Source of the DNA: Patellaria atrata CBS 101060
Lineage: Eukaryota
DNA length: 64,000 nucleotides
NCBI GenBank assembly: GCA_010093705.1
Contig: MU006096.1
Location: forward strand, 49,558 to 113,557
Direction of reading: 5' to 3'
Shown here: in pieces, positions 1 through 3,397 of the stretch
How positions within the stretch are numbered: position 1 is the stretch's first letter
Layout: each line of letters starts with the position of its first letter
Notes under the pieces: generated by a model
Database searches by the model: none
The model's input: the letters and a program-made list of their open reading frames with translations, nothing else
What the model was told of the DNA's origin: nothing
Made by a program: the position numbers and the translations under genes

Positions 1-1830
1 TCCTTCCACCGTCCCGCAAGGCTTGTTGCTAGCCCTACCATCCCCATACTGCTTAATGTGTCCTCATGCTCTCTACCAAGCAGTTTTGTCCTAACCTTCA
101 TTGATCTCATCGATAGTTTCTCAGCATCGCTCAGACTTCCTTTTTGCCACGCATACCACGCTGCCCTGTACAACAATAGAGCCCACTGTCTAAGGCATTC
201 CTCAGACTTGGGCGGCTGTGACAGCGCCGACTTAACATGTGGAAAGAGCGCCTGACATTTGACCCAGTTTTTATGTTCCCCTGTCGGAAATTCTATGCAA
301 AGATTGTTGATGTACTGCTGTTTCCATGTCTCTAGTTGGCCCTGTCCTTCCAACCACTTCCGCGTGGCCAGCTGCACAAGCCTATGCATGTCAAATGTGA
401 TTGCATCAGTGGTAAGTGCGATAAACGAGTAGTTCCTCAACGTAAGAATATCCTCTTCGAACCCATCGTCGATGCTGGCTTCCGACTTACTATCGTCGCT
501 ATTACTATTTTCGCCGTCTAAGTTAATAGTTCCTACGTCCTCTTGTCTATTTCCCATCCCACTTTGAGTGCGAATAAGCGCTTCGGGAATCCCCTGCCGG
601 TCAAAGAAACTCATTAAGGATAATAGGTTTGCCGCCGACCGCCTTGTATAGAGTATAAAGTCGAAGGAGATTTGCCATGTTAGAAGAATAGAGTTCTTAG
701 CTTCGTGGTCTCTTCGAAGATGACCTCCTTCGTAGTCTAATAAGCTTGTCTTTTTCCTGTCGTTCTTATGGAACTGGTCTAGATACTGCCGTATTGAACA
801 TCTTGGTGCTCGTTGTCGGATATACGCAGCCGCCTGCACAAGAGCGAGTGGTATGAATTCGAGCGCTGTTGCTAACTCGGCTATACCGTCGTTATCTATT
901 CCCTCCCCTAGTTTCTTTCGTAGAAGAGCTTGCGCTCCTATACCATTCATCGGCTCGATAGTTATAATATCGGTTTCCTCCACTAACTCCCTCGCCGCTT
1001 TCCTTGTCCAACTAGTGACTAAAACCGCACCGTTTTTGCTCTGGGGCAAATAGGATAAAAGGTGCCGTTGACGAGCGCGATCTCCGCCGCCAGTCTGTGT
1101 CTTATGGCCATTGTTCGCTTGTAGAGAGAGAAAAACGGCATCGTCGACATTATCGAGGACCAGCAGCCACTTGCCGTTCTTCTCGCTGCGAAGCCAGTTA
1201 TAGACAAGCTCGAATATATCTGCTCGTGGGTCTTTCCGACCAGCCAGCTTGACTTGGTCCGCAATGGCTCGGTAACCTTGCTCGACACGGGCCGCGTTGC
1301 TGGCGTGCACCCAGAATACCCACGTCTCCGGCGATCGATCTGCGGTTCGATAGCAGTGCTCGATAGCAAGTTGCGACTTCCTATCCCTGCGTTAGGTGCG
1401 AGGACTGGGCCGAGTGCTTTCTCCACTTACCCCACGCCGCCGAAGCCGACTAACGCTATACGAGATGCCGGCGTGGAGCATTTCTCGTGTATCTGATCGA
1501 GTAGCGTGCCACGATCGACGAAGTCTGGGTCACGGCAAAAGGGGATATTGCAGGAAGGGCTCGGCGGGGTCTCTGGTCTCTCTATCAAAGCGGGATTTTA
1601 GTATCCTTTCTCTATAACAAAGAGTTGCCAGCAATGACTCACCATGGTACTGGATATTATAGGTTTTTGTTACGGAGCCTAAGTAAAACTTAGTATAAGA
1701 AAGAGATATCGCTGTGAATAAGAGATGTACCGATAATATTACCCGATAGATGATCGGCTATAACACCACTATTGCTAGAGATAGGGCCAAACTTAGTACC
1801 CGTCGGGGTTGCTGTCACGTTGCAAGCCAT
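1..1830 (-). CDS. Fungal NLR: short N-terminal peptide + NB-ARC + TPR repeats; 3' end runs off the window
   Basis: Manual splicing (exons 1830-1731, 1678-1643, 1581-1431, 1380-<1; GT..AG introns with CTAA branch sites) gives MACNVTATPTGTKFGPISSNSGVIADHLSGNIIGSVTKTYNIQYH-ERPETPPSPSCNIPFCRDPDFVDR, P-loop GFGGVGKSQLA, Walker B WLLVLDNVDD, PLALVQAAAYI, MHRLVQ and the TPR start LLGREHEDTLSSM. No in-frame stop seen in the window. Confidence 0.9.
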
Positions 1831-2428
1831 TACTGCCACAGAGGGCTATGGATACTAGGACTAGACACTATACTAGCGTATTTAGACGAGTAAATAAACA
1901 TAGGAATAGCTTTGCCCTTCAATTAACCTACTTTAAATGAGTCGGCTTAAACACCGTAGGAACCGCGATCGAGTGCGTGGTCTAATTCTCTTATAAGCTC
2001 TTCACCGGTCAACCTCTCCTAGCTTAATATCCCGCAGCCTTTCTCCGGATTAAGCGCCTTCAAGTTCAGCTGTATTTCAACGTCGCACTTTAGTTTAAAA
2101 CGAATGGGTATACGCACTCGCGCTAGCGGTGGGTGCGGGCGTGTAGAGTAGTAGAGAGCTTTGTAACTGGGCATAGGCAAGCCCACACCAACAGCTGGCT
2201 GCCAATTAGAAATGTCGGCCCCACACCAGAATTCTCTTTTTCTAAGATTGCGAACATTCCCGTACTAGCGTGTTGATTGTGTATACTTAAGAGTTGAAAC
2301 AGGCTATAGCGTTTCTATCAGCAGGGCTCTCCCGTATACATCGGTTCGGCCTGGTTAAAGCAAGCCTCACCTGCTAAGTGAGAAATAGAAATAACCGCTA
2401 TTCACTCATCTCCCCTGCTTATTCTAAC

Positions 2429-3397
2429 ATGGCCGAAAGCGTAGAATTTGGGGTACCTCTACACAACCCAAATGATGCTAAGGTCGAGTACGTCTATCCT
2501 AGAGTAGCAGCCCATGTCCATTCAACTTCTTATTCGGTCTTGCTAACCAAAAGTCAGTATCATATTTGTTCATTGCCTGGGCGGCCTTGTTTTCGCAATT
2601 GCAGTATCGCGCCCGCCGGGCGTCAATGAAACGGCGCAGAAACTCACAGAGAATACTATGGGCATGATCTTCTTGGGTACGCCATTTGCAGGTTCTGACA
2701 AGGCCTCGTGGGGTGAAATGGCGACAAAATTTATAACGTTGTTTGGTATCTAAACGATATCAAAGATCTTAAGGAGCGGTTAGCAAGGTTAATCGATTAT
2801 TAACCTAGACTTTGACACGTTCATTAAAGCGCGCGACCGTGATCGCAAACAGGGGCCTGTGGAAATTGTCTGTTACTATGAAGCAGAACCGACGTATGCT
2901 GGACCTAAGAATATCGGAAAGATTATAAATAAGGAGTCGGCTGCGAGACTTTCAGCTATTGCTGCGCTTTCTATCCCAGACAATCACACTGACATGTGTA
3001 AGTTTGCCGGCGAATTTTCAAGCGGGTATGCTAGTGGGTCGGCCTAGTTGGAGCTATGGATCACGGCGCTCGACAAGAGGGAAGACAAAGACAAAGACAA
3101 AGATAACGAGGTGCGCGCCCTACTCAGTAGCTGATTATTAGATGGTAGGTTAACGCTGTGCAAAAGGACTTGACGAGAGTGAGAATTGATGGTATAGTCA
3201 ATAATAAAGGCGTAGTAACAGGAGTTATAATTTCTCTCCCTAGAGAGATGACTAGTATCACAGGGTCAGCTGATACGGTAATATACCCGATCCATATCTT
3301 CTAAGCTCGTCGATATCGCTGATACTCCTAATAGACCTATAACTTTGGTCAACTTCTCGATGACGCAACTGTAAAGCTAATGGGAAAGATGAAGTAA
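2429..3397 (+). pseudogene. SesB-like / PGAP1-like alpha/beta-hydrolase effector with C-terminal amyloid-like motif; disrupted
   Basis: Fragments VDIIFVH, LGGLV, GMIFLGTPFAGSDKASW, EIVCYYE, NHTDMCKF are typical of SesB-like lipases. Frameshifts/stops near 2750-2805 and 3045. Last two exons (3167-3277, 3335-3397) encode RIDGIVNNKGVVTG...SITGSADTTYNFG. Confidence 0.8.

Follow-up and report, generated by a model that had tools for sequence, protein, structure and literature searches.

The two divergent genes at the left edge of a 64,000-nucleotide stretch of the Patellaria atrata CBS 101060 genome (contig MU006096.1, positions 49,558 to 113,557 of the forward strand; this whole stretch is referred to as the window) raise three linked questions: whether the NLR (NOD-like receptor, NOD standing for nucleotide-binding oligomerization domain) encoded by one and the SesB-like effector encoded by the other share an amyloid signalling motif, whether this motif belongs to a described class, and whether the pair can signal. 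An original prediction, made from the letters of this DNA alone, had regarded the two genes as an amyloid-templating immune pair with a possibly new motif. Based on the present data, we hold with moderate confidence that the window contains a decayed duplicate of a head-to-head NLR/SesB-like pair, the homologous end-motifs of which belong to an unclassified family of amyloid-signalling type. The pair itself is a relic and not a working signalling unit, and the interest lies in the motif family rather than in the locus.

Known systems in which a motif at the N-terminus of an NLR is matched by a motif at the C-terminus of an effector have been described (PMC3321046, PMC5485727, PMC9815663; features of published systems are quoted here as given in the accessible parts of the cited sources). 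As originally proposed, the window has this layout, with the effector-side motif at the C-terminus of a SesB-like gene product and 598 bp between the two start codons, where some 600 bp had been noted. The features of both genes are given below. P0146, to which the effector gene is compared, is an intact effector paralogue from another contig of the same genome, which was found by a search with effector exon 3 in which the stop codon was read as X.

1731 to 1830, minus strand: NLR exon 1 (ATG at 1830-1828; 33 codons plus one base), with the block I-x-x-N-x-G-V-I
1679 to 1730, minus strand: NLR intron 1 (52 nt, GTACAT..TTAG)
1643 to 1678, minus strand: NLR micro-exon 2 (36 nt), with the second block S-x-T-x-T-Y-N-I
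1582 to 1642, minus strand: NLR intron 2 (61 nt, GTGAGT..ATAG)
1431 to 1581, minus strand: NLR exon 3, coding for the E-R-P-E-T-P-P linker followed by the Walker A stretch G-F-G-G-V-G, to which exon 4 adds K-S
1381 to 1430, minus strand: NLR intron 3 (50 nt), the splicing of which restores G-K-S
1 to 1380, minus strand: NLR exon 4, with the NB-ARC-type NOD, DUF7779 and the first TPRs; open, continuing past the window edge
2429 to 2487, plus strand: effector pseudogene exon 1, in which 18 of 23 residues are identical to the start of P0146
2558 to 2745, plus strand: effector pseudogene exon 2, with the H-C-L-G-G junction at 2571-2585 as the deletion point
2746 to 2808, plus strand: degenerate stretch with stop codons at 2751-2753, 2781-2783 and 2790-2792 and a net loss of three residues
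2809 to 3110, plus strand: effector pseudogene exon 3, with the C-terminal half of the hydrolase domain and an acidic linker
3167 to 3277, plus strand: effector tail exon of 37 codons, flanked by two phase-0 introns, with the block I-x-x-N-x-G-V-V and a longer arc
3335 to 3397, plus strand: last effector exon, beginning with T-Y-N-F, stop codon at 3395-3397

Exon 1 of the NLR gene ends within the split Gly codon of I-I-G, and the acceptor of intron 2 was placed as indicated because an earlier AG leads into a stop codon. A Pfam scan detected no enzyme domain upstream of the NOD; the approximately 45 residues that precede the linker and the Walker A motif match no Pfam domain, and the matches on the long exon are DUF7779 and TPR_12. 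Splice sites, the Pfam scan and the relatives described below thus all agree with the initial view of an NLR that lacks an N-terminal enzyme domain and starts with a peptide of about 45 amino acids on two small exons; the positions and peptides read at that time, and the two blocks seen in common, were likewise correct. When 7993 candidates were scored for homology to the NLR, 1155 matched at E <= 1e-3. The 120 of these that were listed are fungal NB-ARC/TPR NLRs of Pezizomycotina with identities of 48-73% (54-73% for the ten best-scoring homologues, the best at 73%), and most of these 120 have the E-R-P-E-T-P-P linker in common with the window NLR.

A receptor-side profile was searched against 1.84e9 representative proteins with a cut-off of E <= 1e-3. 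Among the 25 matches, 19 carry the motif at the N-terminus (18 short open reading frames, ORFs, and P0130); two others that were inspected are unrelated repeat proteins, and the four further matches, not counted among the 19, are long sequences with multiple matching stretches. The motif is also carried by P0006 and P0053, two of the 120 NLR homologues listed. Like the window NLR, P0053, P0006 and P0130 have a short motif N-terminus and no effector domain. A word-based search with residues 1-46 of P0053 returned only P0053 itself among 4 candidates.

These relatives bear directly on the micro-exons. The 18 short ORFs (43-91 residues, from other assemblies) have the same start as NLR exon 1, with the shared form M-A-D-x-x-P-x-V-x-T-G-A-K-x-F-G-x-I-S-x-N-R-G-V-V-x-G-D-x-S-G-x-x-x-V-I-G, and their similarity ends right after I-G. 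This loss of conservation implies an intron at the same spot as the end of exon 1 in the window. In the spliced proteins P0053 (NB-ARC/TPR) and P0130 (NACHT/ANK), I-G is followed by 11-12 residues equivalent to micro-exon 2 and then by the linker. On the effector side, the annotated protein P0147 runs ...G-S-A-D-T-T-Y-N-F-G... across the last effector junction of the window and ends one residue from the window stop; since P0147 reads straight over the same junction, the last splice is confirmed. Conservation in the relatives therefore supports the predicted models of both the NLR micro-exon and the effector tail exon. The contigs of two sequencing runs pass through the introns without joints, and these runs behave as genomic DNA. 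We also observed that the motif exons are mishandled in public models: P0006 omits the micro-exon, and P0146, P0151 and P0158 run on into the intron that lies ahead of the tail or inside it. Motif surveys that rely on protein sets would consequently under-count the family.

The receptor consensus approximates T-G-A-K-x-F-G-x-I-S-x-N-R-G-V-V-V-G-D-A-S-G-x-A-x-V-I-G-S. In an alignment of 22 sequences (21 relatives and the window, which aligns with them from its Met onward), F and N never vary, and conservation is at least 90% for M, T, G, K, I, G, G and D. The motif is found on receptors of two architectures, NB-ARC/TPR and NACHT/ANK. Its composition is dominated by G (15%), A (13%), V (12%) and I (8%), it is also rich in N, and K, P and L each account for at most 3%. 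A similar compositional bias was reported for bacterial signalling motifs in the accessible part of a 2020 preprint, from which the low Q content seen here differs.

On the effector side, the motif was found in P0146, P0147, P0148, P0150 and P0157 and in locus L002, an Alternaria-like metagenome contig. All are DUF676/alpha-beta hydrolases, and in the five P-numbered proteins the motif follows the hydrolase domain. The effector form has the same N-x-G-V-V-x-G ... h-x-G-S frame as the receptor form, with a middle arc that is four residues longer (S-L-P-G-G type) in all five tails from which the effector profile was built (the P-numbered proteins). The arc of the window tail is longer still, exceeding the receptor form by six residues. 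Its tail exon is 81% identical to P0146 (38/47), the P-G-G-T of the relatives being P-R-E-M in the window. A 57-nt intron lies between 3277 and 3335, and L002 also has an intron ahead of its tail exon. With phase-0 introns on each side, the motif of the tail exon behaves as a separable exon module.

The central question is whether the two end-peptides are related by descent. A hidden Markov model (HMM) built from the 21 receptor relatives, without the window row, was run on the 2530 six-frame ORFs of the window; NLR exon 1 was its best match (E 3.8e-6), and the runner-up was the effector tail exon, but with an E-value of only 1. Compared directly, the two window peptides gave a Smith-Waterman score of 34, which is modest and was reached by 73 of 5000 shuffles. 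Taken by themselves, these two values would suit a chance resemblance between low-complexity peptides. The profiles argue otherwise. When the 21 receptor relatives were aligned by hhalign to the five effector tails, neither profile containing any window sequence, the score was 26.8 (P 9.7e-6, 22 columns, 45% identity), with N-x-G-V-V-x-G and h-x-G in register. Column shuffles scored 9.1 +/- 2.1 with a maximum of 17.8, none of 300 reaching 26.8. Moreover, the best non-self ORF among the 2530 was precisely the C-terminal exon of the neighbouring gene, and the Alternaria-type tail exon of L002 matched the receptor HMM with an E-value of 0.0018 among 24315 ORFs of 80 loci. We therefore consider chance a very improbable explanation. 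As judged from these alignments, the first approximately 45 residues of the NLR and the last approximately 55 residues of the hydrolase, each encoded on two small exons, are homologous. The T-Y-N-F of the effector gene in the window is matched more closely by the T-Y-N-I of the NLR beside it than by second blocks from other NLRs. Resemblance of motifs within a gene cluster has been described for known systems (PMC3321046).

The effector copy in the window is a pseudogene of the DUF676/SesB-like family, because it has lost about 95 residues, including the nucleophile elbow, and contains four in-frame stop codons relative to P0146. The tblastn comparison shows that residues from about 30 to 124 of P0146, including the A-H-S-L-G-G elbow, are gone. 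This deletion spans the interval between two L-G-G sites, one of which was lost, and the window copy reads H-C-L-G-G, which is no G-x-S-x-G elbow. No Pfam domain matches the window copy, whereas the relatives match DUF676/Abhydrolase and have A-H-S-L-G-G; the initial assignment to SesB-like effectors is thus upheld for the family, through its relatives, and not for a functional gene in the window. Three of the stop codons (2751, 2781, 2790) lie in the degenerate stretch and the fourth is an in-frame TAG at 3045-3047 in exon 3, where the relatives have Q. An interpretation of 2746-2808 as a true intron was dropped, since this stretch is coding in P0146, P0147, P0148 and P0150. Because of the TAG upstream of the tail and the further lesions, the window copy probably does not yield the tail peptide.

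The alternative that the locus is an intact, working amyloid-templating unit has in its favour the layout and the shared motif, which are real, an NLR reading frame that is open across 555 codons and conserved, and the existence of a public effector model. This model, P0149, which came up in the same search as P0146, is the window's own (Patellaria atrata CBS 101060) and is identical to exons 1-3; it is chimeric, calling 2746-2808 an intron and then leaving the gene at about 2999 to join a retroelement ORF (4139-4828). It escapes the stop codons only by treating coding sequence as intron and by this splice into the retroelement, and it drops the tail. Together with the lost elbow and the four stops, two further findings speak against a working pair. 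First, the NLR codon at 1010-1008 is TGG (W) at the arginine of h-h-T-S-R, a position at which all 85 homologues have R and which we take to be the sensor-type arginine of NB-ARC NTPases. Second, the region has a dinucleotide composition of the kind that points to repeat-induced point mutation (RIP). Over 1381-2428, TpA/ApT is 1.32-1.47 and (CpA+TpG)/(ApC+GpT) is 0.82-0.93, compared to 0.55-0.73 and 1.22-1.38 for the genes at 6-16 kb. We see almost no room for an intact unit, and this part of the original prediction did not stand. The window NLR motif is also degenerate: it lacks the near-invariant G-D (G kept in 20 and D in 21 of the 21 relatives), and the part ahead of I-G has lost two residues. 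The state of the NLR is less clear than that of the effector, in that damage to this copy would rest on the single W at the invariant Arg and on the degenerate motif.

Besides this, and besides the pairwise score and the tail E-value given above, a number of observations weigh against a decayed pair with amyloid-signalling motifs. In its NOD part, the NLR deviates from its homologues in 2 of 98 conserved columns (at least 95% conserved, 85 homologues), which equals the homologue median. Adjacency of a motif-bearing NLR and effector was seen in the decayed locus of the window only. No receptor exon was present in 868 bp upstream or about 1 kb downstream of the effector in L002, or in any of 80 SesB-like metagenome loci, and no effector C-terminus was among the 25 matches in representative proteins at E <= 1e-3. 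The profile search originally suggested for co-located pairs thus bore out conservation of the motif on each side and did not extend the co-location beyond the window. For known families, it has been suggested that partners whose genes lie apart can signal to each other (PMC9815663). The fixed difference of four residues between receptor and effector forms fits poorly with simple in-register stacking, HRAM repeats being of equal length. Templating by these motifs is an inference by analogy with the model systems HET-S/NWD2, HELLP-SBP/PNT1 and sesA-sesB/het-eN.

Following these models, ligand-driven oligomerisation of the NLR in intact pairs would gather the N-terminal motifs into a cross-beta template, which would then convert the C-terminal motif of the effector and thereby switch on the hydrolase. 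The analogical basis of this proposal leaves some scope for another role of the shared peptide, for instance as a strand-pairing contact, a targeting signal or a degron, or for its being a functionless shuffled exon; the fixed receptor/effector indel, the symmetric phase-0 tail exon, which could be moved by shuffling, and the single instance of adjacency would all be compatible with such a view. Nonetheless, the peptide is terminal on both partners, occurs on two unrelated NOD/repeat architectures, is rich in G, N, V and I and poor in K, P and L, and is paired with SesB-like proteins, a combination of hallmarks of signalling motifs that makes a non-amyloid role, in our judgement, doubtful. Structural comparisons add the following. 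A search of the motif profile against PDB sequences returned a proton pump as its sole match (E 0.51) and no HET-s, HELLF or RHIM entry. An AlphaFold2 model of P0147 (6 sequences) had a mean predicted local distance difference test score of 48, with the tail (293-356) at 27-41, as in other parts of the model; this quality was insufficient for conclusions to be drawn from it.

We return to the reading of the locus as a decayed duplicate and to its setting, for which two further features are relevant:

1831 to 2428, no strand: divergent intergenic region (598 bp between start codons) with RIP-like dinucleotide bias
3400 to 5000, plus strand: repeat region, in which a high-copy repeat begins at 3399-3403, with a copia-like polymerase fragment containing stops

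Within the intergenic region, the two indices amount to 1.47 and 0.93 at 1900-2428. The repeat sets in 2-6 bp past the effector stop codon, and the summed contig word depth is about 1e5 (from 3372) versus about 480 nearby. The copia-like fragment at 3518-4036 corresponds to a retroviral polymerase SH3-like domain (SH3_retrovirus) broken by stops. Extra contigs with at least 95% likeness were found in both DNA runs over 1374-1595, 2410-2705 and 3002-3075, and loose ends at 1589 and 2407 lead into related but diverged flanks. These extra contigs and diverged flanks suggest that the entire head-to-head pair has at least one paralogous copy at another place in the genome. A second RIP-like stretch lies apart from the gene pair at 16001-20000 (TpA/ApT 0.89-1.05, second index 1.0-1.07). 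The decayed pair borders a normal, gene-dense region, the remainder of the window (21488 to 63999) encoding the common housekeeping products Rpn9/PCI, aconitase, a SAM-domain protein, COG5, ureidoglycolate lyase, a class II tRNA synthetase and DNA polymerase epsilon.

For this genome, the consequence is that the annotated effector is a chimera of pseudogene and retroelement and that a duplicated immune pair has left a RIP-marked relic at this locus. The motif has wider implications, as new motif families have served as models for functional amyloid folds and for cross-seeding barriers. Protein surveys will readily overlook a motif that is split over two small exons, which may explain part of the large set of unannotated short NLR N-termini (PMC9815663). 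The rules of templating would be informed by the fixed length difference and by the replacement of Q by V in the core, and, if the proposal is true, the family would offer a natural test case for the register mismatch that amyloid templating tolerates.

How, then, does the motif compare with the known amyloid signalling families? The Pfam models HET-s_218-289, Ses_B and NACHT_sigma matched neither the window exons nor six relatives, even at E-values up to 10. The sigma system (sesA/sesB/het-eN of Nectria haematococca) resembles the present one in that a SesB-type hydrolase effector lies beside an effector-less NLR, in a motif length of about 40 residues, and in a 5' NLR intron that hid the motif from annotation (PMC5485727, PMC3321046). 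The sigma motif is built from three repeats of GxGxQFNxx and/or GGTQNINT (PMC3321046), and such units are absent here, in line with the unmatched Ses_B and NACHT_sigma models. HRAM (HRAM1-5, HET-S/NWD2) is a unit of 21 residues, in which position 19 is G and positions 5, 8, 10, 16 and 18 are hydrophobic, as given in the accessible literature. If the invariant N is set at position 3, G19 is obtained in 16 of 21 receptors, positions 8 and 18 are hydrophobic, and the receptor carries a single copy. However, 20 of 21 sequences have G at position 5 and all 21 have D at position 10, position 16 is polar (hydrophobic fraction 0.05), and there is no preference for R/K at position 15; PF11558 was unmatched. 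The effector also differs from that of HRAM systems, carrying one copy instead of r1+r2, an N-to-G spacing of 20 instead of 16, and a DUF676 hydrolase instead of HeLo. PUASM is a recent addition to the fungal families that was found by the same logic of comparing an NLR N-terminus with the C-terminus of a neighbour (PMC9815663). Its pattern FxGxGxQxxGxGxF, which is tied to PNP_UDP effectors and NACHT NLRs (PMC9815663), is absent here, and the effector is DUF676.

A 2025 paper, in its accessible part, counts four families of NLR-associated amyloid motifs in fungi, and the FASS test sets comprise five (HRAM, sigma, PP and PUASM 1-2). The accessible text of the 2022 survey (PMC9815663) also mentions some unassigned receptor-side motifs without partners, such as NLR34 (Fusarium NACHT proteins, positions 5-32); no NACHT protein of Fusarium length (NLR34 type) was among our 25 profile matches. 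The text-searchable supplements of PMC9815663 contain neither the accessions of family members (OAG06710, XP_018037075, OAG16366, KAF2475957, KAF9893432, KAH7119994 and others) nor the genus names Lindgomyces and Patellaria, a weak negative, as it does not extend to the HMM and FASTA files. A full-text literature search with four motif strings returned nothing relevant. As judged from Pfam models and printed signatures, the motif family is thus probably undescribed.

The closest comparison is with PP (HELLP/SBP/PNT1 of Chaetomium globosum), a pseudopalindrome around a conserved Q with the forms NxGhQhGxNxG and FxGx(x)NxGLQLxGxNxGxL (PMC5485727, PMC3321046), which is also known on SesB-like lipases (SBP; PMC5485727). 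In both systems, an NB-ARC/TPR NLR starts with the motif and a SesB-like lipase ends with it, both motifs contain the skeleton N-x-G-h-x-h-G-x-x-x-G, and among the 120 NLR homologues listed, 46 have a PP-type start in the same place before the E-R-P-E-T-P-P linker. An alignment of the receptor family to these 46 starts by hhalign gave a score of 13.6 (P 0.004) with N and G in register. These likenesses would suit a diverged, RHIM-related member of PP rather than a new class. Yet the score lies inside the range of 150 shuffles (mean 8.1, maximum 16.8), as does that of the effector profile against the PP-type starts (11.2; shuffle maximum 11.4). The defining central Q is present in none of the 21 receptor sequences, 18 of which have V and 3 have I, and is V in the 5 effector tails. 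In addition, the present motif lacks the second N and extends about 15 residues beyond PP, the effector side has the four-residue insertion, no HeLo-like partner was seen, and PF17046, for which precomputed matches exist on at least 13 of the 120 homologues listed, several of them of PP type, was unmatched by the motif. We accordingly rate membership in PP as unlikely, while the family may be an offshoot that diverged far from PP and has V where PP has its central Q. The original prediction, in which the motif was not recognised as HRAM, PP/RHIM or sigma, therefore stands for HRAM and sigma, the signatures of which do not fit, and is qualified for PP, the skeleton of which is weakly echoed with V in place of Q. 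Our tentative proposal is that the family of end-motifs seen in the decayed pair would constitute a further fungal NLR amyloid motif family beside HRAM, PP, sigma and PUASM: one that is tied to SesB-like hydrolases, is found with NB-ARC/TPR and NACHT/ANK receptors in Dothideomycetes and Eurotiomycetes, has an effector rung that is always four residues longer than that of the receptor, and has a V-V-V-G core where PP and RHIM have h-Q-h-G.

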